This document shows, in pieces, positions 42,606 to 56,529 of a DNA stretch of 64,000 bases. The stretch spans positions 32,001 to 96,000 of the forward strand of contig CAVPHD010000001.1 in NCBI GenBank assembly GCA_963704165.1, read 5' to 3'. Source of the stretch: an uncultured delta proteobacterium (GTDB lineage: Bacteria > Myxococcota_A > UBA9160 > SZUA-336). Under the pieces are notes generated by a model. It was not told where the DNA came from. It did no database searches and worked only from the letters and a program-made list of their open reading frames with translations. Position numbers and translations under genes: made by a program. Each line of letters begins with the position of its first letter. Within the stretch, counting starts at the first letter, position 1.

Positions 42606-45600
42606 ACGCGTACTCTTCGGCAAACGCGCGATCGTCGGGGTAGGCGTTCGCGGCCGACTTCGCGACGAAGAGCGCGTGGTCGGTGGCGCCGGTGAGCGCG
42701 GCGCTCCAGGCGATCCAGAACCACATCGGCTTGTAGTCGACCTCTTCGCGCCAGATCGAGACCACGCGCTCGAACCGGTCATCGGACTGGAATCGAGACG
42801 CGGCGGCGATCCAGCTCGCGGCGTTCATCCGAACGCGGCGATCGTTCTCGAGCTTGATGTCGCGGAGCTCACGGCGAAGCGCGACGTCGTCGCCGGTCGC
42901 GAGCGCCTCGATCAGGCGGAGCTCGCGCGCCTCACGGTCGAAGCTCCGGTGGTCGAGCCCGAGCGAGCGCGCTTCCTCGCGCGCCTGCCCGCTCCGTCGC
43001 GTCAGTTGGACGACTCGCGCCATGTCGAGCGTTCGGTGCTGCTCCGAGAAGAGCGACGCGACCTCGCTCGCCCAGAACGTCGGCGAGACACGCGCGAAGG
43101 AAAGGTCTCTCTCGGTCTGCGCGTCGCCCGCGAGGCGGGACGCGTGGTCGATCGATCCGCTTCGCGGAAGAGGCGCGGCTTCGATGCGAGCCAGGATCGC
43201 ATCCGGGCCGAAGCGAGCCTCGTAGAAGCGCGCGATCACCGCATACCGCGTGAGCGGAGCGTCGGATGGATCGAGCTCGCGGAACGCGATCGTCGCGATC
43301 CACTCGGAGATGCCCGACTCGATCGCCGCGCGCTCCGAGCGCGCACTCGACTCCGGGCCCCGCGTTTCGAGAAGCAACGAGATCCCGCTCGCCACGAACC
43401 AGCGAAGCTGACCGCGCACGGGCTCGGTCTGCACGCGCCAGAGGTCGAGTGCGAGCCCCTCGCCCGCGAGCGATGCGTCGAGTCGGGAGATCTCCTTCTC
43501 GATCGCGGGCACGACCTCCTCCGCCATGATCTCCAGCGCGAGCGGCAGATCGGCACGCTCGACCTGCAGCGCATCGACGAGCGCGAGGCGCGGGTCGAGG
43601 AGTGGCTTCCCGACTTGATCCTCGAGCGCCGGGATCTGGTCGCTGCGGAGCTCGCGTGCGAGCGCGCGCCCTTCGTCGATCCGGCCCGCCTTGAAGAGCG
43701 CGATCACCCGATCGATCGACATCGACACGAGCGTTCCGCCCGGAGACACGTGCGCACTCGCATCCGCGAGGGCCTGGGCGGCGAGATCGTACTGGCCGGT
43801 GTAGTGGTACAGGCCGGCGAGCTCGGTGTAATTCGACTCGTTTCGGTCACCGCTCGCGATCAATCGCTTCATCTTCTCGATCGCGCGCTGATACGTCTGG
43901 AAGTGCCAATCGCGCTGCACGTCGATCATGGTCCGCGCGTACTGTGGATCCTCGAAGATCCGCGAGGAAAGGAACCAGCTCGAGCGCGTGTTCTCGCCGG
44001 AGAAGCGCAGCAGCACCTCGAGCTTGGTCAGATCGACGAGCTCCCCGCTGCCGAAGCTCTTGTAAGCGAGCTCGAGGCTGTTCTGCAGCGACGTACCCGG
44101 AAACACGAGAGGTTGGCCGGTCTGCAGCACGTAGGTGAGCCACGTGCCCTCCGCTCGCGGCTCGGACCAGGCGAGGGCCGCGTGCGCTGGCAGTCCGATC
44201 ATGTGCGCGACACGACCCTGGCGCGCGGCGATCTCCTGGTAGAGCTCCGAGAGATCGTCACAGTCGCCACGCAACATGCCGCCGGCCTGCGCCGACAGCG
44301 TCTGCGACGCGGTCTGGTGTATGTCGCCCGAGATCGTCCGAGTACCGATCAGCAGCGGGTTTCGCGGATCCGGGCTGTCGAAGGTGTAGACGAGCAGGTA
44401 TTGACCGATCAGGTCGAGGTGCGCGGCGTCGGGCAGGACTCGCGCGGCCTGGAGGTACCAGGCCTCGGCGTCGGCGCTTCTTCCGCTCTTCGCAGGGTCG
44501 AGCCGGCCGTGTGCGGTGACGAGCGCGAGTACGTCGGAGTTCGGCGCGGTCACGACGATGTGCGGCGGGAGTGCGTCGCGCAGCGCCGCCCATTCGACGC
44601 CGGGACCGGTGGTCGGGAACGCCTGGCGCCAGGTCTCCTCGTCGGACCGCAGGCCGCGCTCGGAATCCCAGGCGGCAATTCGATCCGGCCCGCTCCAGAG
44701 CTCGGCTTCGACCCAACTCGCCGCGTCGCGCAGCGGGTCCGATCCGTGCGGGAGGCGGACGACCAGCCGAGTCACGACTCCGTTGGTGTAATAGGCCGGA
44801 AGCGGCGCGAATACCGCGTAGCCGACACGTTCTCGTGTCGCCAGCGTCCAGACGCGCTTCCCGAACGCGTCCTCGACGAGCTCCATCTTCGCACCCGACC
44901 CCTCGAAGGTCGCGATCGGGAGCATGCGTTCGGATCGGAGGACGGCATCTCGAACCGCGTCGGTCGCGCCGCGCTTCGCCTTCAGAACCGAGAGCCAACC
45001 GGCCCGAACGAGCCGACGTGCGAAGCTCGGCGGTACCAGATCGAGGCTGTACTGCGTGTCGTCCAGCGTGATCTGCATCAGGATCTCTGCCACCGCCATC
45101 CGCGTCTCCGGCGTGGTCGCGGTCTCCGGCAGCGAAGCGATGAGCGCATCGACCGCCCGGGCGAGCTGCTCTCGGCTCGCGGAATGAATCGCGCGCGTCG
45201 CCTGCGTCAGCGGCTCGCGCGGGATCTCGCGCAACACGCCTTCGCGTACCACGTACAGGTCACGACCGACGAGATAGGCGCCGGTGAGCTCTTCTTCGTA
45301 GAGCACCAGAGCCTCGGCACGAAGCCCGGCCGTACGCGCCCGGGCGAGCATCGCCGGCAGATCGACGAGCGGCGCGGTGTTCCAGTTCGCGAGCAGACCC
45401 CAGCTCGCGCGCAGATCGCCGATCTCGGTCGCGAGCGCGAGCCAATCCCCTTCGCGCGCACGCACGATCTCGTACTCGTAACCCGGGGCGGCGCGCCAGA
45501 ACACGTGTGAGTCGCGCACCACGAGGTCCGGGCGGGCGGGAAGGATCGATCCGACCTCGACGCCCTCCACCTCTCGAGGCGCGAGCGCGGGCGGCGGAGC

Positions 45601-45693
45601 GCCAGCTTCCGCGCCGGGATCCGGCGGGAGGGTCTGCGCGGTCGCGCACGCGACCAGGAACACGGCGAGGACGGCGGAAGCGAAGCGACGCAT
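42472..45693 (-). CDS. Large lipoprotein with transglutaminase-like Cys-protease core and TPR region
   Basis: LVAC lipobox; HQTASQTL...GDCDDLSEL...LPAHAA; TPR-like ELAGLYHYTGQYDLA. Confidence 0.75.
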   Translation of the reverse strand: MRRFASAVLAVFLVACATAQTLPPDPGAEAGAPPPALAPREVEGVEVGSILPARPDLVVRDSHVFWRAAPGYEYEIVRAREGDWLALATEIGDLRASWGLLANWNTAPLVDLPAMLARARTAGLRAEALVLYEEELTGAYLVGRDLYVVREGVLREIPREPLTQATRAIHSASREQLARAVDALIASLPETATTPETRMAVAEILMQITLDDTQYSLDLVPPSFARRLVRAGWLSVLKAKRGATDAVRDAVLRSERMLPIATFEGSGAKMELVEDAFGKRVWTLATRERVGYAVFAPLPAYYTNGVVTRLVVRLPHGSDPLRDAASWVEAELWSGPDRIAAWDSERGLRSDEETWRQAFPTTGPGVEWAALRDALPPHIVVTAPNSDVLALVTAHGRLDPAKSGRSADAEAWYLQAARVLPDAAHLDLIGQYLLVYTFDSPDPRNPLLIGTRTISGDIHQTASQTLSAQAGGMLRGDCDDLSELYQEIAARQGRVAHMIGLPAHAALAWSEPRAEGTWLTYVLQTGQPLVFPGTSLQNSLELAYKSFGSGELVDLTKLEVLLRFSGENTRSSWFLSSRIFEDPQYARTMIDVQRDWHFQTYQRAIEKMKRLIASGDRNESNYTELAGLYHYTGQYDLAAQALADASAHVSPGGTLVSMSIDRVIALFKAGRIDEGRALARELRSDQIPALEDQVGKPLLDPRLALVDALQVERADLPLALEIMAEEVVPAIEKEISRLDASLAGEGLALDLWRVQTEPVRGQLRWFVASGISLLLETRGPESSARSERAAIESGISEWIATIAFRELDPSDAPLTRYAVIARFYEARFGPDAILARIEAAPLPRSGSIDHASRLAGDAQTERDLSFARVSPTFWASEVASLFSEQHRTLDMARVVQLTRRSGQAREEARSLGLDHRSFDREARELRLIEALATGDDVALRRELRDIKLENDRRVRMNAASWIAAASRFQSDDRFERVVSIWREEVDYKPMWFWIAWSAALTGATDHALFVAKSAANAYPDDRAFAEEYAFMKRRFGGPPSAGTRRRAASTRSSLPESPRRSGTERRFRSRPRT

Positions 45694-45767
45694 CGGCTGC
45701 CGGTACCTTACCGAGTCCGGCTGAAGTAAGCTCCGCGTCTCCGAACCAAACTCTCACCGAGGGGGAA

Positions 45768-46034
45768 ATGAAAGTTCCGAAGCTCGCGCTCTACCACTTC
45801 GACAGCTGTCCGTACTGCGAGCGCGTTCGCGCGGCCCTGGGCCGCCTCGATCTCCAGATCGAGCTGCGCGACGTCCACAGCGAACCCGAGTGGAGACAGG
45901 AACTCGTGCGCGCGACCGGGAAACAGATGGTGCCCTGCCTGCGCATCGAGCAGGAGGACGGCCGCGCCCGCTGGATGCACGAATCGGCCGACATCATTCG
46001 CTATCTCGAAACGGAGGTGGCGCGTCGGGGCTGA
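45768..46034 (+). CDS. Glutaredoxin / GST-N-like thioredoxin-fold protein
   Basis: CPYC, TGKQMVPCL, ESADIIRYL. Confidence 0.92.
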   Translation: MKVPKLALYHFDSCPYCERVRAALGRLDLQIELRDVHSEPEWRQELVRATGKQMVPCLRIEQEDGRARWMHESADIIRYLETEVARRG

Positions 46035-46053
46035 TCGCCCCGCGCGCACGCTC

Positions 46054-46884
46054 ATGTCGACCACCGATGCGCGCGAACGCTTCATCGACATCTTGCGCCT
46101 GCCCGACGAGAGCGTCGATCTGGCCGAGGCTGCGCTCTGGGTCGCGGCCGAGCAGTACGAAGGACTCGACGTCCCGGGTTACCTCGCGCGACTCGCCGAG
46201 CTCGCCGAGACGGCGCGGCCGCTCGTCGATGCCGCCGAGACGATCGAGCAGCGAATCACGGCGCTGAATCGATTCCTCTACGACGAGCACGGCTTTCGAG
46301 GCAATCGCAGCGACTACTACGACACGCGCAACAGCTTTCTGAACGACGTCATCGATCGCCGCACCGGCATTCCGATCACGCTCGCGATCGTCTATCTCTC
46401 GGTCGCCAGGCGCCTGGGTCTGCCGGTCTCCGGCGTCGGATTCCCCGGCCACTTCCTGCTCCGCTGTCATGCGCAGGACGAGATCGTGATCGACCCGTTC
46501 GAGGGCACCTTTCTCTCGCGGTCCGACTGCGAGGAGCGCTGGCGCGCGACGCTCGGCGCCGACACTCCGTTCGACGTTCGCGCACTCGAACCGGCGCCCG
46601 CGCACGCGACGCTCTCTCGCCTGATCGGAAACCTGAAGCAGATCTTCCTCGCGCAAGAGGACTGGCCGCGCGCACTCGCGTGCATCGAGCGGATTCTCCT
46701 GCTCGAACCCGACGAACCCCTCGAGCTCCGCGACCGCGGCCTTCTCTACGCTCGCCTCGAATGCTTCGAAGCCGCGAAGGCGGATCTTCACCGTTTCCTC
46801 GAGCTCGTGCCGGATGATCCGAGCTCGACCGGCGTTCGCCAACGACTGATCGAGCTCATGCGGAGCTCGCCGGCGCTTCACTGA
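46054..46884 (+). CDS. SirB1/YchA family (transglutaminase-like core plus TPR)
   Basis: GFRGNRSDYYD.RNSFLN.VI.RRTGIPITL, GVGFPGHFL, IDPF, ELRDRGLLY. Confidence 0.92.
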   Translation: MSTTDARERFIDILRLPDESVDLAEAALWVAAEQYEGLDVPGYLARLAELAETARPLVDAAETIEQRITALNRFLYDEHGFRGNRSDYYDTRNSFLNDVIDRRTGIPITLAIVYLSVARRLGLPVSGVGFPGHFLLRCHAQDEIVIDPFEGTFLSRSDCEERWRATLGADTPFDVRALEPAPAHATLSRLIGNLKQIFLAQEDWPRALACIERILLLEPDEPLELRDRGLLYARLECFEAAKADLHRFLELVPDDPSSTGVRQRLIELMRSSPALH

Positions 46885-46889
46885 CGGGA

Positions 46890-48176
46890 ATGGGAGAAGT
46901 CGACATGCCGGTGCCCGACGAGCGAGCAGGGCCCGCATCCGACGCCGGGTGCCGATCGGGAGGAGCGGACTCGATCGGGTACGAGCACTCGCCGATCCCG
47001 GTGCGCGAGGATCTCCGCGCTGCGCATCGCCGCGCATGGCGACGGCTCGCATCCGCGGGCACGTGGTGGACCGGTGCAGAGCGCGTCGCGATCGCGCGCG
47101 AGGTTCGACGCGAAGCGAGCTGCGCTCTCTGCGCGGATCGACGACATGCGCTCTCGCCGAACGCAGTCGCGGGCGAGCACGCGCCGGCCACGCCGCTCGA
47201 GGCCGCTGCGGTCGAGGCCGTCCATCGCATCGCGGGCGATCCCGGCCGGCTCTCGAAGCGCTTTCGCGACGGACTCGAAGCCGCCGGACTCGACGATGCC
47301 GCCTACGTGGAGCTCGTCGGTGTCGTCGTCACGGTCGTCAGCATCGATGCGTTCTGTCGGGGGATCGGCCTTCCGCTGCACGCGCTTCCGGCACCGCTCG
47401 CGGGCGAGCCCTCCCGGTACCGACCGAGTCAGGCTCGCGACGACGGCGCCTGGGTGCCGATGATCCCCGCGTTCGGCACGACCGGGAAGGAGGCGGATCT
47501 CTGGCGCCGCGGCGCGACGGGAAACGTGATCCGCGCGCTCAGCCTCGTGCCCGAAGAGGTCCGGACTCTGAAGGACCTGAGCAACGCCCATTACCTGCCA
47601 CCAGAGCAGGTCGCCGACCCGAGAGCGCAGCTTGGCGCGCTCTCTCGCGCGCAAGCGGAGTTCCTGGCCGCTCGTGTCTCCGCGCTGCGCGAGTGCTTCT
47701 ACTGAACCAGTTCGCACGCGCTGCTGCTCCGTGCGAGTGGCGAGATCGAGGGTGAGGCGTACGACATCGAGACCGTCACGACGGGGGATACGACCGGATC
47801 GAGCGGCGTTCCGAACGGGCCGGCGCTGAGCGCCTTCGCCGAGGCGCTGGTCAGCGGCGACGGGAATGCACTCGCGCACGCGCGAGATCGCGTGGCGCTG
47901 GAGCTCGGGCCGGACGGCTTGCTCGACGTGGCCGCCGTCGCGTCGAACTTCGAGCGCATGGTCCGGATCGCGGATTCGACGGGCATTCCGCTCGATGCGC
48001 CCGTCGCGGCGCTGACCTCCGACCTGCGCGACACCCTGCACCTCGATCGCTTCGAATCGGCCGCACGGACCCGACGACTCGGGCGCTTCGGCCGGGGGCT
48101 CGCGTCCGTGCTGCGTGCGGCGCTCCCCGTCGTCCTGCGCCGCCTGCCCCGGCGTCGGGATCGCGCGAAGGACTAG
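46890..48176 (+). CDS. AhpD/CMD-like alkylhydroperoxidase-related selenoprotein (UGA 47703-47705 read as Sec; alternative start ATG 46905)
   Basis: ORF 46890..47705 ends at ECFY-TGA. The frame stays open (TSSHALLLRASG...) into ORF 47892..48176, giving CxxUxxxH. A hairpin follows the UGA directly. Confidence 0.85.
47707..47740 (+). promoter_or_regulatory. Candidate bacterial SECIS hairpin
   Basis: TCGCACG 47712-47718 pairs with CGTGCGA 47730-47736; CCA 47707-47709 pairs with TGG 47738-47740; G-containing apical region. Confidence 0.65.
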
Positions 48177-48541
48177 TCGCCGCCGCCGCGGAAGCGCTCG
48201 AGATCGCGGCGCTCGCGCTTGGTCGGGCGCCCGGCCCCCGGATCGCGCTGCGGCATGCGCACGCGCACCTTTCTCGGCTCGGGCGGCGGGGAGTGATCGT
48301 CGAAGAGCTCGCGCGCGAGCGCGGCGGAGAGGCGCTTCTCGGCGAGCGCCTTCACCTCGAGGATTCGCGGTCCCCCCTCGGTCTGCGCGCGCACGCGATC
48401 ACCGACGCGCAGTCCGTAATGCGGCTTCACGTTGTCGTCGTTGACCTTCACCCGGCCACCCACACACGCCTGTGTCGCTTGCGTTCGCGACTTGTAGACC
48501 CGCGCGGCGCAGAGCCAGCGATCGATCCGCACGCTCTCCAT
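48173..48541 (-). CDS. hslR: S4-domain ribosome-associated heat shock protein Hsp15
   Basis: VRIDRWLCAARVYKSRTQA, GAGRPTKRERR. Confidence 0.92.
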   Translation of the reverse strand: MESVRIDRWLCAARVYKSRTQATQACVGGRVKVNDDNVKPHYGLRVGDRVRAQTEGGPRILEVKALAEKRLSAALARELFDDHSPPPEPRKVRVRMPQRDPGAGRPTKRERRDLERFRGGGD

Positions 48542-48564
48542 CACCGGCAGTCTAGGCGGCTCGG

Positions 48565-50337
48565 TCAGATCTCGTACTGCCAATCGTCGTCCGACTCGAA
48601 GCGGAAGATTTCCGAATCCGGTCGCGGACGCAGACGTGCACGCGCGAGATCGAGCGCACGCTCGAGGCCCTCGAAGATCCGGCCGCCCGTGAGCACGAGC
48701 GCATCGGGACCGACGACCGCCCCGAGCTCGGTACTCGCCAGCAAGCCGTGAAGCCGCTCGGAGAGACCACAGAGCACGAGCGAAGCGCCGCGAGATCGCA
48801 GATCCGCCGCGAGATGCCGCAGGACCTCGAGCACGGTCGCGTCGAGATGCCGCGCGCGTTTCAGCCGCAGGACGACGACCTCGGTTCCGCGCGAGGCGAC
48901 TTCTCGGAGACGATCGGCGAGCTCGGGCGCGACCGCGAAGTTCAGGTCGCCCTCGAGGTGCAGGATCACGGCGGGCATCGCGCCGGTCTGCGCGTCGATC
49001 GGAAGCTCTCGCAGGCGGCGTTGTCCGCTCTGCGCGAGCTCGACCATCTGCAGCCGACCTGCGCGCCGCACGAGCAGCGCGAGCGAGAGCAGGAGTCCCG
49101 CGTACACGGCCGGCACCAGATCGAGCCAGAGCGTGACGGCGAGCGTGACGGCCAGCACCGCCGCATCGCCCGGCGTCGAAGCGGCGCGGCGGATCTGCGT
49201 CGGCGAGATCGAGGCGAAGCCCGTCAGCACGATCAGCCCCGCGAGCGCCGCCATCGGCACGCGTTCGAGTCCGGGGGCGAGCACCGGCAGGAAGAGCGCG
49301 ACGAGCGCCCCCGCCGTCACGCTCGCGAGCCGCGTGCGGGCTCCGGCGAGACGCGAGGTCAGCGACCGCGTGAGCGAGCCGCTCGTGCACTGCGCCCCCA
49401 CCAGCGCCGCAGTCACGTTCGCAACGCCTTGGGAGAACAGCTCGCGGTCGGGGTCGAGCGCGGGACCGCGCGCGGGCTCGAGCGCTCGAGCGGACGCCAT
49501 CGCCTGCACGGTGATCAGCAGCGCGAGCGCGAGCGCGGGCGGCAGGATCTCGGCCGGGTCGAACGCGCGCGGCGCGTGAAGGGCGGGCAGATCGAGGGCA
49601 AGTGCCGAAAGGCGCGGGAGCGCTCCCTCCCCTTCCGTCCAGCCGAGAAGCGCCGAAGCGAACGCGGCCAGCGCGAGCGCCGCGAGCGCGGCCGGAAAGC
49701 GCGGACCGGCCCGTCGGGTCGCGAGGATCAGCACCGGAACCGCGAGTCCCACCGCGAGCGAGTGCGGATCGGCGGCAACGAGCGCACCCAGAGCGTCGCT
49801 GAGCGCCCACCACGCGTTCGGTATCAGCATCGACGTCTCGTGCGGCGCGGGCTCGGTGCCCGCGAGCATCGGCAGGTAGCGGAGCGCGATCAGCAGGCCC
49901 ACACCGATGTTGAAGCCGCAGATCACGGAATCGGATAGGAAACGCGACGCCCGTCCGTAGCCCAGCGCGCCGAGGCCGATCAGCATCACGCCAGCGCAGA
50001 GGCCGGTGGCGAGCGCGGCCGCGATCGGATCGTGACCTCGGGCGATCGCGGGCGCGACCACCGAGACGCCGAGCAGGAGCGCGGTGGGATTCGTCGGCCC
50101 GGTCACCATGAAACGGCTCGAGCCGAAGAGCGCCCCTACCAGGGCGGGCAGCGCGGCCGCCGCCAGGCCCATCTCGGCAGGAAGCCCGGCCACCAGTGCG
50201 TACGCGACCGCCTGTGGAATCGCGAGCGCCGCGATCGCCACGCCTGCGAACAGGTCTGGAGAGATGTCCGCGCGACCCGTGCCGCGCAGATGCGGCGCGA
50301 ATCGGGCGAGCGCGCCGCGCAGCAGACTCCGCCCCAA
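48565..50337 (-). CDS. SulP/SLC26 anion transporter with STAS domain
   Basis: IPQAVAYALVAGLP, LFGSS, TGPT, SGSLTRS; STAS LEGDLNF..HLDAT. Confidence 0.92.
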   Translation of the reverse strand: MGRSLLRGALARFAPHLRGTGRADISPDLFAGVAIAALAIPQAVAYALVAGLPAEMGLAAAALPALVGALFGSSRFMVTGPTNPTALLLGVSVVAPAIARGHDPIAAALATGLCAGVMLIGLGALGYGRASRFLSDSVICGFNIGVGLLIALRYLPMLAGTEPAPHETSMLIPNAWWALSDALGALVAADPHSLAVGLAVPVLILATRRAGPRFPAALAALALAAFASALLGWTEGEGALPRLSALALDLPALHAPRAFDPAEILPPALALALLITVQAMASARALEPARGPALDPDRELFSQGVANVTAALVGAQCTSGSLTRSLTSRLAGARTRLASVTAGALVALFLPVLAPGLERVPMAALAGLIVLTGFASISPTQIRRAASTPGDAAVLAVTLAVTLWLDLVPAVYAGLLLSLALLVRRAGRLQMVELAQSGQRRLRELPIDAQTGAMPAVILHLEGDLNFAVAPELADRLREVASRGTEVVVLRLKRARHLDATVLEVLRHLAADLRSRGASLVLCGLSERLHGLLASTELGAVVGPDALVLTGGRIFEGLERALDLARARLRPRPDSEIFRFESDDDWQYEI

Positions 50338-50340
50338 CGA

Positions 50341-50814
50341 CTAGCCCTGCTCCGCGGCGGGCGGGAACTCGACCTCGAAGCGCTCGAGCAGTCCGAGCGC
50401 ACAGACCGCATGGCTGGGCTCGAGCAGATAGATCTCGACCCCGGGACGCGCGACGAACACCTTGGCGCTCGGGAGCTTCGCGACGTAGGTGTCGAGCGCC
50501 TGGGCGCGCTCCGGCTCGGCATCGAGCTTGCGCAGGTGACCCTGGATCGTCACGCGCGCGAACTTGCTCATGTTCTCGAGCCCCACGGCGCGCGTGTCGA
50601 TCTGCGCGCAGACGCCGTTCCCGCTGCCGAGGTAACGCCCCTTCATGGAGCCCGGCGAGGTGCCGAAGATCAACCGCGCGGCGCCGGCCTCGGCGAAGAA
50701 CATGACGGAGCTGTACGGTGGATCCCCCGCTCCGGGGCCGGCGAACGAGAAGACCGCGAAGCTCTCGTCGCGAAGCACCGAAGCAATCGTCTCGAGCTGC
50801 TGGTCACGGGTCAT
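50341..50814 (-). CDS. Pyridoxamine 5'-phosphate oxidase-like split-barrel protein
   Basis: PPYSSVMFF, LIFGTSPGSMK, VTIQG. Confidence 0.7.
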   Translation of the reverse strand: MTRDQQLETIASVLRDESFAVFSFAGPGAGDPPYSSVMFFAEAGAARLIFGTSPGSMKGRYLGSGNGVCAQIDTRAVGLENMSKFARVTIQGHLRKLDAEPERAQALDTYVAKLPSAKVFVARPGVEIYLLEPSHAVCALGLLERFEVEFPPAAEQG

Positions 50815-51025
50815 GAACGCCCGTCTAGCACGCGCGCCTCGGCATTGTAAATCCGCTTCCGGGACGTGCAGTTGTGCGCATGTCGACCGGGCAGGTCCGC
50901 GCTCCGTATCGGGACCCGGGAACGCCGGCTCAGGCTCGCGCGGCGGATCCCCGAAGAAGGACGGGCGCTTGCCTCGGGCGGAGGCGAGGGCTACTACGGT
51001 CGATTCCCAGAGGTCGGGAGGAGCA

Positions 51026-53780
51026 TTGGCAAAGTCACTCGTGATCACGGAGAAGCCCAGCGTCGCGCGCGACATCGTCGCGGTGCTCGGCGGCTTCACC
51101 GAACACGATGGGTACTGGGAATCGAACGAACACGTCGTCACGTTCTCGGTGGGGCACATCGTCGAGCTGCTCGCGCCCGAGGACGTCGATCCGCTGTACA
51201 AGCGCTGGACTCTCGACACGCTCCCCATCCTGCCGAGCGAGTTCAAGCTGAAGCCGAAGTCCGGGCAGTCCGAGCGCATCCGCACGATCAAGAAGCTGCT
51301 CGCCCGCGATGACGTCGAGATCGTCGTCAACGCCTGCGACGCCGGCCGCGAAGGTGAGCTGATCTTCCGCGAGATCCTCGAGTACCTCGAGTGCACCAAG
51401 CCGACGAAGCGCCTGTGGCTGCAGTCGATGACCGCGAATTCGATCCGCGCCGGATTCGAAACGCTCGTGGACGGCTCGAAGTACGACGGACTCGGCGCTG
51501 CGGCGTCGTGCCGATCGAAGTCCGACTGGCTGATCGGCATGAACGCGACGCGCGCGCTGACGCGGCGGCTGAAGGCACGCAAGGAGAAGACCGCCTGGTC
51601 GGCCGGGCGCGTGCAGACACCGACGCTGGCGATCGTCGTCGATCGCGAGCTCGAAATCCTCGCGCACGTTCCCAAGCCGTACTGGCAGCTGCAGGGGCGC
51701 TTTCGCGCGGCGGATCACGAATACGTCGGGATCTGGTTCGATGCGGACTTCCGCGCGCCCGAGGGCGAGGAGCGGGAGAACCGCGACGATCGGATCTTCG
51801 ACAACGCGCGCGCGAATTCACTCGTGGACCAGATCGGCGGCCAAGCGGCCGTAGCGAGCGAGACACGCAAGCCGAGCCGAGAGACCGCGCCGCCGCTCTT
51901 CGACCTGACGAGCCTGCAGCGCGAGGGCAACCGCCGCTTCGGCTGGTCGGCGCGCCGCACGCTGAACGCCGCGCAGCGCTGCTACGAGGCGCACAAACTC
52001 CTCACCTACCCGCGCACCGACTCGCGCTGCCTTCCGAACGACTACCGCTCGACCGTGGACGAGGTCTTGCGCTCGTTCGCCGAGGCCGGCCCGTTCCAGG
52101 CCGAGGCGACCCACCTGCGCGAGAAGGGTCTCGAGAACACCGAGCGCACCTTCGACGACGCGAAAGTCTCGGATCACTTCGCGATCATCCCGACCGGGCA
52201 GAATTCCCGAAACGAGCCTGTCCGGCGACGACGAACGTCTCTTCGATCTGGTCTCCCGACGATTTCTCGCGAACTTCTACGAGCCCGCGGTCTGGAACCG
52301 TGTCGAGCGCGTGACCGAGGTGGCGGGCCAGAAGTTCCGCTCCCGCTCGCGCACCCTCGACGAACCCGGCTGGCGCGCGGTGCTCGGGCAGGTCGAACAG
52401 GAAGAGCAGGTGCTGCCCGCGCTCGTCCCCGGTGCGACCGAGGCCGAGGCGGTCGACGTCTCGATCCTCGGCGTCGACCTCGAGACGGATCGCACGAAAC
52501 CGCCCCCGCGAATCACCGAAGCGCGACTGCTGTCGCTGATGGAATCGGCCGGAAAGGACATCGAGGACGAGGAGCTCGCAGCCGCGATCTCCGAGAAGGG
52601 GATCGGGACCCCGGCGACGCGCGCAGACGTGATCGAGAACCTGATCGCGAAGAGCTACCTGATGCGCGCGAGCAAGTCGCTGCGCCCGACGGTGAAGGGC
52701 ATCCGGCTCGTCGACGTCCTGCGACGGATCCACATCGACCGACTCGCGTCCCCTTCGCTCACCGGCCAGCTCGAGTTCGACCTGCGCCAGGTCGAACGCG
52801 GGGCGATGCCCGCCGAGCAGTTCATGGACGAGATCGTCGAGTACACGCGCCAGATCACCGACATCGCCAAGACCTTCGAGTACGAGGATCTCTACCCGGA
52901 CGAGGAGCCGCTCGGGACCTGTCCGCTCTGCTCACGCCCGGTCTTCGAGCGCTCCTGGTTCTATCGCTGCCTCGAGGTTCCTGGCGTGAGCGGCGACGAC
53001 GATTGCCGCATGCGGATCTGGAAGGACAAGTCGGGACGGTACATGGACCGCCAGACCGTCCGAACCCTGCTCGAGAAGTTCGAGACCGACGAGCTCGAGG
53101 GTTTTGCCGCCCGCGATGGCCGCACGTACAGCGCGCGTCTCACGCTCGAAGACGGTGAAGTCGTGCTGCACCCGATCGCGGGAAGCTCGAGCGATCGCGT
53201 CAGTGAGTCCCCGGAGTACGAGGTCAACGAAGAGCCACTCGGGGCGTGTCCGATGGGCTGCGGAAGTCAGGTCGTCGAGACGCAGACTCACTTTCAGTGT
53301 CAGGCCGGGATCGCGAAGCAGGCGGAGAACGACATCAAGGCGCGTGAGTTCGAGGCCGAGCACAACGAGGCCGGGAAGCGCCGCAAGCGCTACAAGGTGC
53401 CCGACGAGGACAAGCCCTGCGGCTTCCTGATTCCGCGCACGGTGTGCAAACGCGAGATCACCCGCGACGAGGCGATGAAGCTCCTCGGTCCCGAGCGGAA
53501 GACCGACCTCCTCACCGACTTCACCTCGCGCTTCGGCCGGCCGTTCTCCGCCATGTTGTTCCTGAAGGAGAACGGGCGGCACGGATTCGAATTCGCGCCG
53601 CGCCAGCCGCGCGGCAAGGCCGCAGCGGAGGCGGCGGACGCCGAGCCCGGCGAGGGAGCCGAGGCCGGCACCGAAGCGGCGGCTCCGAAGAAGAAGCGGT
53701 CCACGCCCAAGACGGCCCGGCGCAAGAAGGCGGCCGCGAAGAAGACACCCGCCAAGAAGGCATCGCGGAAGAAGGCGTGA
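51026..53780 (+). CDS. topB: DNA topoisomerase III (type IA), frameshift near 52196, Lys/Ala-rich tail
   Basis: ITEKPSVA, NACDAGREGELIF, DWLIGMNATR, SAGRVQTPT, LTYPRTD, SDHFAIIPT; next frame GIGTPATRA, LASPSLTG. GGAGGAG RBS before TTG. Confidence 0.92.
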
Positions 53781-54643
53781 GCAGGGTCCGGCGCATCGGC
53801 CTCGTGCAGCAGGCGGTCGGCGACGACCTCGATCGGAATCTCGCTCGCGCCGAGGAGGCGATCCGCGAGGCGGCGTCGGGCGGCGCGCAGATCGTCTGTC
53901 TTCAGGAGTTGTTCCGCAGCACCTACTTCTGTCAGCGCGAAGACGCATCGCTCTTCGATCTGGCGGAGCCGATTCCCGGGCCGACGACCGAACGCATGTC
54001 GAAGATCGCTGCCGACTGCGGCGTGGTGCTGATCGTGCCCGTCTTCGAGCGACGCGCCGCCGGCCTGTATCACAACTCGGCGGTCGTGATCGAGCGCGAC
54101 GGGACGATGATCGGTCACTACCGGAAGATGCACATTCCCGACGATCCCCTCTTCTACGAGAAGTTCTACTTCACGCCCGGCGATCTCGGCTTTCACGGCG
54201 TGGACACCTCCGCGGGCCGGATCGGCGTTCTGATCTGTTGGGATCAGTGGTTCCCGGAGGCCGCGCGGCTCCTGGCGCTCGACGGCGCGGAGCTTCTCTT
54301 CTACCCGACCGCGATCGCATACCTCGACGGCGAGACCGACGAAGAGAACGCGTCGATGCGCGAATCGTGGCTGACGGTGCAGCGCGGGCACGCGATCGCG
54401 AACGGCGTCTTCGTCTGCGCCGCGAACCGCGTGGGTCGCGAGGGAAGCTTGCGCTTCTGGGGCAGCTCGTTCGTCGCGGATCCACGGGGGCGACTGATCG
54501 GCCAGGCCGGCGATTCGTCCGAGCAGGTGCTGATCGTCGACTGCGACCTCGAGACCATCGAGAGGCAGCGACGAGGTTGGCCGTTCCTGCGCGACCGCCG
54601 CATCGATGCGTACGGCGACCTGCTCTCGCGTTTCCGTCGCTAG
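53777..54643 (+). CDS. aguB: N-carbamoylputrescine amidohydrolase (carbon-nitrogen hydrolase)
   Basis: CLQELF, YRKMHIPDDP.FYEKFYFTPGD, ICWDQWFPEAAR, YPTAI. Adjacent to agmatine deiminase. Confidence 0.9.
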   Translation: MSRVRRIGLVQQAVGDDLDRNLARAEEAIREAASGGAQIVCLQELFRSTYFCQREDASLFDLAEPIPGPTTERMSKIAADCGVVLIVPVFERRAAGLYHNSAVVIERDGTMIGHYRKMHIPDDPLFYEKFYFTPGDLGFHGVDTSAGRIGVLICWDQWFPEAARLLALDGAELLFYPTAIAYLDGETDEENASMRESWLTVQRGHAIANGVFVCAANRVGREGSLRFWGSSFVADPRGRLIGQAGDSSEQVLIVDCDLETIERQRRGWPFLRDRRIDAYGDLLSRFRR

Positions 54644-54644
54644 C

Positions 54645-55664
54645 ATGAACTCACGCCTTCGCATGCCCGCCGAATGGGAACCACACGCTTCGACGTGGCT
54701 GGCCTGGCCACACGCGATCACGACCTGGCCGGGTTGCCTCGACGACGCCGAACGCGAGTTCGAGTTCCTCGTGCGCACGCTCACGCGGTTCGAGCGCGTG
54801 GAGCTCCTGGTCCAGAGCGAGTCCCATCGCGGGCGGATCGAGGAGCGGCTCGGCGCGATCGTTCGCGGTGGCGCGCTTCGCCTGCACGTGATCCCGACCG
54901 ACGACGTGTGGATGCGCGACATCGGGCCGACCTTCGTTCGCGCCGACCGACGAGCTCATCGCGCTCGACTGGACCTTCGACGCGTGGGGCGGGAAGTACG
55001 CGCCGTGGGACCGCGACGACGCGGTCGCCGCGCAGGTCGCGAAGCTCGCGGGTGTTCGCCGTGAGCGTCCGGGAATCGTTCTCGAAGGCGGCGCGATCGA
55101 GGTGGACGGTGAAGGGCACGCTTCTCGCGACCGAGCCGACGCTTCTCGATCCGAAGCGGAATCCCGGCATCGACCGGCGGGCGATCGAGACGCTCGTCCT
55201 CGAGTTGCTCGGCGCGCGCACGACGATCTGGCTCGGTGACGGCATCGAGGGCGACGACACCGACGGACACATCGACGACATCGCGCGCTTCGTCGCACCC
55301 GGACGCGTGGTCTGCGCTCGCGAGCGGGATCCGCTCGATCCAAACCACGAGCCGCTCGAGGACTGCATCGCACGCCTGCGCGCGGCACGCGATGCCGCCG
55401 GGCGCGCGCTCGAGGTGATCGAGCTGCCGATGCCGCCGCCCGTGCACGCGGGCGAGGATCGTCTGCCCGCAAGCTACGCGAACTTCTACGTCGCCAACGG
55501 AGCCGTGCTCGTGCCCGATCTTCGACGCGCCCACCGACCGGCAGGCGCTGGATCTGCTCCGTCCGCTCTTTCCGGCCCGGGAGATCGTCGGCATTCCCTC
55601 GCGCGCGCTCGTCCGCGGACTCGGTGCCGTGCACTGCCTGACGCAACAGCAACCGCTGACATAG
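54645..55664 (+). CDS. aguA: Agmatine deiminase, three frameshifts (about 54947, 55112, 55518)
   Basis: RMPAEWEPH, DDVWMRDIGP, AWGGKY, LEGGAIEVDG, GDDTDGHIDD, ASYANFY and GAVHCLTQQQP, spread over several frames. Confidence 0.9.
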
Positions 55665-55673
55665 AATCGTGTC

Positions 55674-56529
55674 ATGCCACGGGCGGCGGCTCTGAAGCGA
55701 TATGAGTTCGCGAAGTACCATGCCCTCGGGAACGATTACCTGGTGGTCGACGGAGACCTCTTCCGTCCCCAGCTGAACGGCGAGCGAGTGCGCGCGCTCT
55801 GCGACCGCAATACCGGGATCGGGAGCGACGGCGTTCTCTCGTTGCATCGGCCGGACCGCGGCGCACTCGTTCTGCGGATCTGGAACCCCGACGGCTCCGA
55901 GGCCGAGAAGAGCGGAAACGGCATTCGGATCTTCGCCCGCTTCCTCTGGGACTTCGGCTACGTGAGGAAACGCGAGCTCGAGATCGCGACGGGTGGAGGT
56001 CGGGTCGTGGCCCGGCTCTTCCTCGTCGGAAGAGAGGTGCGGAGCATCCGCGTCGACATGGGACGTGCGACCTTCGCGAGCTCCGAGATCCCCATGCTCG
56101 GCCCCGAGCGCGAGGTGATCGACGAGCCGCTGCGGGTCGGCTCCCTCGATCTTCGTGTGACCTGCGTTTCGGTCGGTAACCCGCACTGCGTCCGCTTCGT
56201 CTCCGAGCTCCATCCCGAGGCCCTGCGCAGCTCTGGGACCACAGCTCGAGAACCACGCGATGTTTCCGAACCGGATCAACGTCCAGCTCGCGCGGGTGCG
56301 CTCTCGATCGGCGATCGACATGCTCGTCTGGGAGCGGGGCGCCGGTGAGACGCGGGCCTCCGGCTCGTCGAGCTGCGCGGTCGCCGCCGCCGCGCACCGG
56401 CTCGGTCTGGTCGATCGCAAGGTGGACGTGCGGATGCCGGGCGGAAAGCTCCGGATCGAGGTCTCCCCCGACTACGCGCTCCGGATGACCGGCTCGGCGA
56501 CTCCGGTCTATCGCGGGAGACTTCTCTAG
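55674..56529 (+). CDS. Diaminopimelate epimerase-like protein (Ser/Ser active site), frameshift near 56232
   Basis: KYHALGNDY, GIGSDG, IWNPDGSEAEKSGNG, VDMG, SVGNPHCV, FPNRINVQ, WERGAGETRASGSSSC, MPGG.L, MTG.A. Confidence 0.85.

Follow-up and report, generated by a model that had tools for sequence, protein, structure and literature searches.

An in-frame UGA with a conserved SECIS hairpin in a predicted two-repeat, AhpD-like selenoprotein gene of the CFYUT family from an uncultured delta proteobacterium

We analysed an in-frame TGA that joins two open reading frames within the window, by which we mean the whole 64,000-nucleotide stretch of DNA studied here, and found that this codon is very likely read as selenocysteine (Sec). 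The gene belongs to a known selenoprotein family, first predicted in 2005 and since curated by NCBI. The fuller reading, which we hold with moderate confidence, is that the UGA and its SECIS hairpin are decoded to give a two-repeat, selenol-dependent hydroperoxide reductase. As a Sec assignment it goes no further than NCBI and the 2005 survey had already gone; the contribution of this analysis is the predicted two-repeat fold and Sestrin2 as the best whole-chain structural match. The features discussed below are collected in Table 1.

Table 1. Positions of the gene and its predicted elements in the window
Feature	Position	Strand	Basis
Whole CDS through one UGA	46890..48176	+	Translation; NF041238 match, residues 38-390 to model 1-357/357
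Predicted Sec codon, in-frame TGA	47703..47705	+	TGA in 112/113 distinct loci; Cys in 25 full-length homologues
Bacterial SECIS hairpin	47723..47741	+	7-bp stem; 5-nt loop CGUGC (47730-47734) 24 nt past UGA; -9.1 kcal/mol
N-terminal AhpD-like repeat (residues about 31-165), predicted	46980..47384	+	Folded alone, pLDDT 94
C-terminal AhpD-like repeat (residues about 184-378), predicted to be catalytic	47439..48023	+	Straddles UGA
C78-A-L-C81	47121..47132	+	At AhpD CxxC position (weak profile alignment); V66 and R85 replace relay Glu and His
H97 (47178-47180) and H112 (47223-47225)	47178..47225	+	Invariant in 31/31
E257, predicted relay Glu, 12 residues ahead of first Cys	47658..47660	+	113/113 loci
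Predicted active-site motif C269-F-Y271-U272-T-S-S-H276	47694..47717	+	Translation, homologue alignment
Basic amphipathic C-terminal helix (residues about 399-418), predicted	48084..48143	+	Helix in AlphaFold model

Results

The coding frame across the UGA

The upstream ORF (46890-47705, forward strand) comprises 271 codons and its last residues, ARVSALRECFY, are followed directly by the TGA. Past this codon the frame stays open for a further 156 codons, up to a TAG stop at 48174-48176, and takes in the second ORF (47892-48176). The initial annotation of this DNA had placed the UGA in frame with that downstream ORF, and the offset of 1002 nt with no stop between them bears this out. When the TGA was translated as Sec, the product was a chain of 428 aa carrying C269-F-Y-U272-T-S-S-H276 and, near its N-terminus, C78-A-L-C81, in agreement with the earlier proposals that a single protein of about 428 aa is encoded and that the UGA occupies the place of the second Cys, with a His at +4. 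The length is 428 aa from the ATG at 46890 and 423 aa from the ATG at 46905; the public gene call (P0002, 266 aa) uses the latter, five codons later, and ends at the TGA. The true start codon is uncertain. Homology to relatives starts near residue 31, and a GGAGGA (window 46959-46976) stands 9 nt 5' of an ATC codon just ahead of this onset; a non-ATG start at that ATC codon is possible. A search of 45500-48600 gave no match to a sigma-70 promoter or an intrinsic terminator.

In this genome of 68% GC, 1483 of the 5195 stop-free stretches of at least 250 codons that end in TGA are then followed by at least 150 open codons, and an open frame past the TGA is, taken by itself, no more than chance would give. 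The case for Sec therefore rests on homology, on the SECIS element and on the decoding machinery.

Family membership

The read-through protein scored 468.7 bits against the full length of the NCBIfam model NF041238 (AhpD_rel_CFYUT), whose curated cut-off is 175 bits, and the CFYUT motif of that family is present as C269-F-Y-U272-T. Generic models stayed below their cut-offs (TIGR00778, 23.9 versus 27.8; PF02627, 20.9 versus 23; TIGR01926, 39.9 versus 81.8). A table in a 2026 review equates NF041238 with the Sargasso Sea 'hypothetical protein 1' (PMC13188914), and the passages of the 2005 Sargasso survey that introduce the family describe it from four sequences, without functional evidence (PMC1088965). 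The initial annotation had missed that the family was already named and curated as NF041238. Among 151 same-class genomes, 82 had a match over the cut-off. The family is thus common in the class, yet our literature search found no experimental or functional study of NF041238, only catalogue mentions or unrelated reviews, and selenoproteome-survey supplements may say more. Three of the papers, in the parts that bear on the family, give catalogue context only (PMC2398784, PMC13326102, PMC9312934). The same search found no link between NF041238 and Sestrins.

A second NF041238 copy, 41% identical and likewise with a TGA, is present in the genome (G000:C5:172035-173081, locus L009). Its hairpin is stronger, and its tail is different and less helical-looking.

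The codon at the Sec position in homologues

We fetched 127 loci, of which one could not be parsed and 13 were removed as duplicates, leaving 113 distinct loci. The codon at the Sec column was TGA in all but one of these, the exception being CGA, and TAA or TAG occurred in none of the 113. In the aligned set of 31 homologues the column was TGA in 31/31. The labels among the loci include Myxococcota, Acidobacteriota, Gammaproteobacteria and Binatia, and labels of this kind make the genome of the window a likely Myxococcota. The best 109 rows of the class search (E 6e-80 or better, counted by eye) had one TGA each. The CGA locus (L114) encodes Arg at the Sec position and keeps its SECIS stem intact; either an assembly error or a loss-of-function change would account for it.

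Protein databases present the family in truncated form. Among the close homologues listed, 119/120 end at CFY or CYY, as expected from the earlier suggestion that standard gene callers would split the gene. Of 150 more distant representatives, 103 end there, 25 go on with Cys, one goes on with Gly and 21 were unparsed; the Cys forms are known here as protein sequences. A cluster of Cys forms from Microbulbifer, which NCBI names 'alkylhydroperoxidase-related (seleno)protein', aligns through the junction with 39% identity in 416 columns. We also searched the DNA of 301 genomes from a different order for Cys-codon copies, and the 16 matches obtained, in 14 genomes, were all TGA. The homologues thus have TGA or Cys at this column and are conserved on both sides of it, the pattern that had been named beforehand as the check on the Sec call.

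These results bear on the simplest alternative, namely that the TGA arose by sequencing error or is a genuine stop codon separating two genes. The split in nearly every listed database record would fit such an explanation. However, the same TGA recurs in 112/113 loci, a single domain straddles the codon, the homologue alignment revealed no conserved start codon 3' of the TGA, and unsplit Cys forms exist. The unsplit forms and the recurrence of the TGA largely refute this alternative, and we consider it extremely improbable.

The SECIS hairpin

The bSECIS criteria quoted in the 2026 review are a loop of 3-9 nt, a stem of 4-16 bp, a G in the first two loop positions, a spacing of 16-37 nt and an energy of -7.5 kcal/mol or lower (PMC13188914). 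The hairpin downstream of the UGA lies inside these published limits on every count (5 nt, 7 bp, C-G-U, 24 nt and -9.1 kcal/mol). The stem was picked by eye from the same 31 homologues in which its pairing was then counted; all 217 of 217 cells were paired, compared with 28-58% in controls in which the stem was slid, and RNAalifold returned a stem identical to the one picked by eye. One pair of the stem is compensatory (CG in 21 homologues, AU in eight and GC in two), and the covariation score was reached by 0/500 shuffles. Synonymous codons are fixed at positions on which the stem depends: Leu+8 is CTC in 31/31 (background 47%) and Arg+9 is CGT or CGG in 31/31 (background 34%). Across the wider set, a G falls within the first two loop positions in 113/113 loci, and 109 of them can form the upper four pairs. 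The peptide that the hairpin encodes, L-R-x-S, is found in 112/113 loci versus 1/25 Cys forms. In this comparison both the pattern and the hairpin columns had been selected using the TGA forms, and related sequences are not independent.

The hairpin in this gene is the weakest of the 31 (-9.1 versus -10.0 to -13.2 kcal/mol). In naked RNA another fold is more stable and the SECIS stem has a pair probability of 0.01, rising to 0.13-0.98 when the leading 9-18 nt are trimmed. Folding of the single sequence in this region did no better than shuffles (z +0.9 to +1.4), so that the signal appears only in the comparative test.

Sec machinery and assembly quality

The genome holds selA (508.6 bits), selD and selB over their cut-offs, and a tRNA-Sec (72.9 bits) with a TCA anticodon. 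The initial annotation had expected selA, selB, selC and selD to be encoded; this held for selA, selD and tRNA-Sec, while selB is present but split over two frames. Both selA and tRNA-Sec look whole, and selD is interrupted only by its own Sec-type TGA. SelD (G000:C3:421287-422210, locus L004) is itself a predicted selenoprotein, with the sequence GGG-U-ARK and a strong downstream hairpin.

The selB frame changes at about positions 287209-287253 of contig G000:C1 (L002:2898-2942), between the barrel domain and the SECIS-binding winged helices, whereas the congeners G014 and G016 have an intact selB frame of 630 codons. All parts of the gene are present in the two frames, and both pieces are 82-87% identical to the congeners. 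In a comparison built on 175 congener ORFs, 15/82 testable orthologues changed frame relative to a congener (0.17 per kb), which corresponds to a chance of about 27% that a gene the size of selB would show a frame change in this assembly. Within the window, a topoisomerase (50645-53780), a peptidyl-arginine/agmatine deiminase (54606-55705) and DapF (55674-56529) are each split over frames. Since the assembly is rich in indels, an assembly error is the likelier cause, and the selB frameshift is probably an assembly indel; findings of split genes from this assembly need care in general.

The frameshifted selB would also fit a rival reading, in which the family is a true selenoprotein family but this strain is losing Sec decoding, so that its copy yields a truncated, inactive product of 266-271 aa. 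The weakness of the hairpin agrees with such a loss, as does the finding that 7/11 other congeners have no selA match. Against it stand the indel rate, with three housekeeping genes split in the window, the whole appearance of selA and tRNA-Sec, the strong hairpin of a selD broken only at its Sec codon, and the close identity of both selB pieces to the congeners. We judge loss of the trait to be very unlikely. Because selB is frameshifted, working read-through in this strain can be called only likely; weighing all of the above, we place Sec read-through in this strain at a high probability.

Across class genomes the gene follows the Sec trait. It was found in 80/130 selA-positive versus 2/21 selA-negative genomes, and the two exceptions are 85-88% complete, both with tRNA-Sec and one with selB. 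Within the genus, a match over the cut-off occurred in 4/4 other selA-positive genomes (one of them partial) and in 0/7 selA-negative genomes, counts that come from related, non-independent genomes. The Sec trait is patchy in the genus, with selA in 5/12 genomes searched, although most other families of the class have it almost throughout.

A predicted two-repeat fold

Residues 31-428 were modelled by AlphaFold with Cys in place of Sec. The result was a single confident, all-helical model across the junction (pLDDT 93, pTM 0.92). AhpD-like structures (Z 12.5-8.3) and Bmp8 match mainly the C-terminal half of this model, straddling the UGA: 2pfx aligns to model 154-348, in the C-terminal repeat, with Z 12.5, and a profile match to 6k40 covers 156-335 (E 2e-12). 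When the N-terminal 150 residues were folded and searched alone, the top eight structural matches were all of AhpD/CMD fold, with Z from 8.7, which is modest for a helical domain, to 4.8, and the next, unrelated match scored 4.2. Because the N-terminal half matches AhpD/CMD folds when treated separately in this manner, the predicted chain is best described as two AhpD-like repeats. A profile comparison of the two halves gave a 127-column alignment that matches CxLC to CFYU but is non-significant (probability 0.6%, E 0.093). Foldseek returned nothing at E 0.001 or better; its best match, at 0.017, was AhpD-like.

The predicted relay residues E257, C269, Y271, U272 and H276 lie on model helices 223-236 and 240-257 and, in the sequence, are spaced exactly as the AhpD proton relay. 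In the first repeat, the Cys pair is invariant in 31/31 aligned homologues, and a CxxC occurs within the first 110 residues in 120/120 of those listed. Counted over non-gap rows, conservation is 132/137 for C78, 136/139 for C81, 134/142 for H97 and 139/147 for H112. The CALC pair had been described as an extra one; it is indeed present, but it is family-wide and part of a further AhpD-like repeat. On the strength of residue conservation, C78, C81, H97 and H112 possibly form a putative Cys2His2 metal site. The predicted C-terminal helix has the highest hydrophobic moment of the chain (0.74 versus a mean of 0.24), and may be a putative membrane anchor. A long C-terminal tail occurs in 85/113 loci and is optional in the family.

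Gene neighbourhood and other selenoprotein candidates

A glutaredoxin-like CPYC protein (window 45768-46034) and a SirB1-like transglutaminase/TPR protein (46054-46884, ending 5 nt 5' of the gene) are encoded upstream in the same orientation. A role as local reductant is conceivable for the glutaredoxin. This arrangement did not recur in other loci. Our neighbour scan covered 111 loci, 31 of them with only 1.5 kb flanks, and may miss short proteins; it revealed no conserved operon, the largest cluster being a short-chain dehydrogenase in 14/111 loci, and the window's own neighbours belonged to none of the 40 clusters listed. No redox partner emerged from the neighbourhoods scanned, and the arrangement decides no functional reading.

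Two peroxiredoxin-like genes elsewhere in the genome have an in-frame TGA and a downstream hairpin (G000:C9:338398-338763, reverse strand, TPG-U; G000:C7:167297-167578, forward strand, W-U-PPC). Both are likely to be further selenoproteins.

Discussion

Proposed mechanism

In the mechanism that we propose, SelB-tRNA(Sec) would bind the hairpin and insert Sec at codon 272. The U272 selenolate would then act as the nucleophile on a peroxide, with E257 and H276 relaying protons, and the substrates may be organic or lipid hydroperoxides. C269 would resolve the Sec intermediate to give a selenenyl-sulfide, and a lipoyl protein or another dithiol could re-reduce it. The first repeat would be non-catalytic and take the place that the second subunit has in dimers of the AhpD type, and its C78, C81, H97 and H112 may serve as a metal or redox-sensing site. 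A product ending at the UGA is likely inactive because it would be without H276 and half of the catalytic repeat.

The peroxide-reductase reading is drawn by analogy with several AhpD-fold proteins. PA0269 is described as having weak activity on H2O2, and in the same account the relay Glu118 of Mycobacterium tuberculosis AhpD lies 12 residues before Cys130 (PMC3141380). The second Cys of M. tuberculosis AhpD is reported as exposed (PMC6626918), recycling of AhpD-type proteins is described as lipoyl-dependent (PMC8945050), and Sestrin2 is credited with activity on cumene hydroperoxide (PMC4674687). Two cases run counter to the second Cys as the key residue: in B. thailandensis AhpD the first mattered more, and in Sestrin2 the first is the only one kept. 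Taking these analogies together, that peroxide reduction is the main job of the protein may be put a shade more firmly than the complete reading, as fairly probable. A more elaborate version would make the protein an inverted-Sestrin selenoenzyme, in which the C-terminal CxxU repeat, anchored by the amphipathic tail, reduces lipid hydroperoxides at the membrane, and the former active site of the N-terminal repeat serves as a Cys2His2 metal or redox switch that controls it; as a whole this seems to us unlikely.

Two other functions would leave the Sec assignment in place. The protein might chiefly reduce disulfides as an adaptor, with lipoyl proteins as electron donors and a peroxiredoxin as acceptor, in the way that M. 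tuberculosis AhpD serves AhpC. No role of AhpD is better established, and the two TGA-bearing peroxiredoxin-like genes would supply possible clients, but in this genome, which is 84% complete, no AhpC exceeded the TIGR03137 cut-off, and no peroxiredoxin appeared in the 12 recurring neighbour clusters scanned. We therefore rate the adaptor role as rather unlikely. The AhpD fold might instead be used for other nucleophilic chemistry, for instance reductive dehalogenation of the Bmp8 kind or detoxification of reactive electrophiles. Among structural matches Bmp8 ranks second (Z 13.2), a specific substrate pocket is suggested by the many invariant residues that the family has outside the AhpD motif, and the recurring neighbours are mostly small-molecule enzymes. 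However, the full relay and the resolving Cys are retained, the scores of peroxidase-related proteins (Z 12.5 and 12.0) tie with that of Bmp8, the recurring neighbours belong to large common families found in at most 14/111 loci, and no halogenated-product gene cluster was seen in the neighbourhoods scanned. Such chemistry is a doubtful explanation, and hydroperoxide reduction is the reading that we carry forward.

This gene and its paralogue should be annotated as full-length selenoproteins because public gene calls truncate the family in 119/120 listed records. Function is made testable by the Sestrin-like build of two repeats, by the conserved Cys2His2 set and by a Cys orthologue from cultured Microbulbifer, WP_252082156.1 of Microbulbifer variabilis; the first two of these merit experimental work.

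Comparison with known systems

This copy shares the CFYUT motif, the N-terminal CxxC and the position of the SECIS element with the rest of NF041238. It differs in a longer N-terminal leader and in a hairpin that is weaker than most, with one extra G-U pair; otherwise we found no substantive difference. Like the AhpD peroxidases (1gu9; PA0269; DR1765, 6k40; the TIGR01926 structures 2pfx and 2prr), the predicted protein has the repeat fold and the series Glu(-12), Cys, Tyr, second-Cys position and His(+7). Unlike them, it would have two repeats per chain and Sec at the second Cys, and it is about twice as long.

Bmp8 (6ohi) is likewise of AhpD-type fold (rmsd 2.8, 174 aligned) and is a chain of 187 residues with 15% identity to this protein. 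By its PDB title it is a tetrabromopyrrole debrominase, and reductive dehalogenation is the chemistry associated with it; our literature search found no paper on it.

Sestrin2 (5cuf) is the best whole-chain match (Z 16.6, rmsd 3.5, 239 aligned, model 1-337 to 76-477), at an identity of 11%. The presence of two AhpD-like domains in one chain, as in the predicted protein, is described for Sestrin2 and for a number of bacterial fused dimers, YciW among them (PMC4674687, PMC11429811). The N-terminal repeat here keeps its CxxC, whereas the degenerate domains of the Corynebacterium and Comamonas fused dimers are described as being without one (PMC11429811). The DDYDY hinge of Sestrins, which replaces the C-terminal helix-turn-helix there, is absent from this sequence. 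The intact predicted relay and the CxxU lie in the C-terminal repeat of this protein, while the catalytic Cys of Sestrin2 lies in its N-terminal domain.
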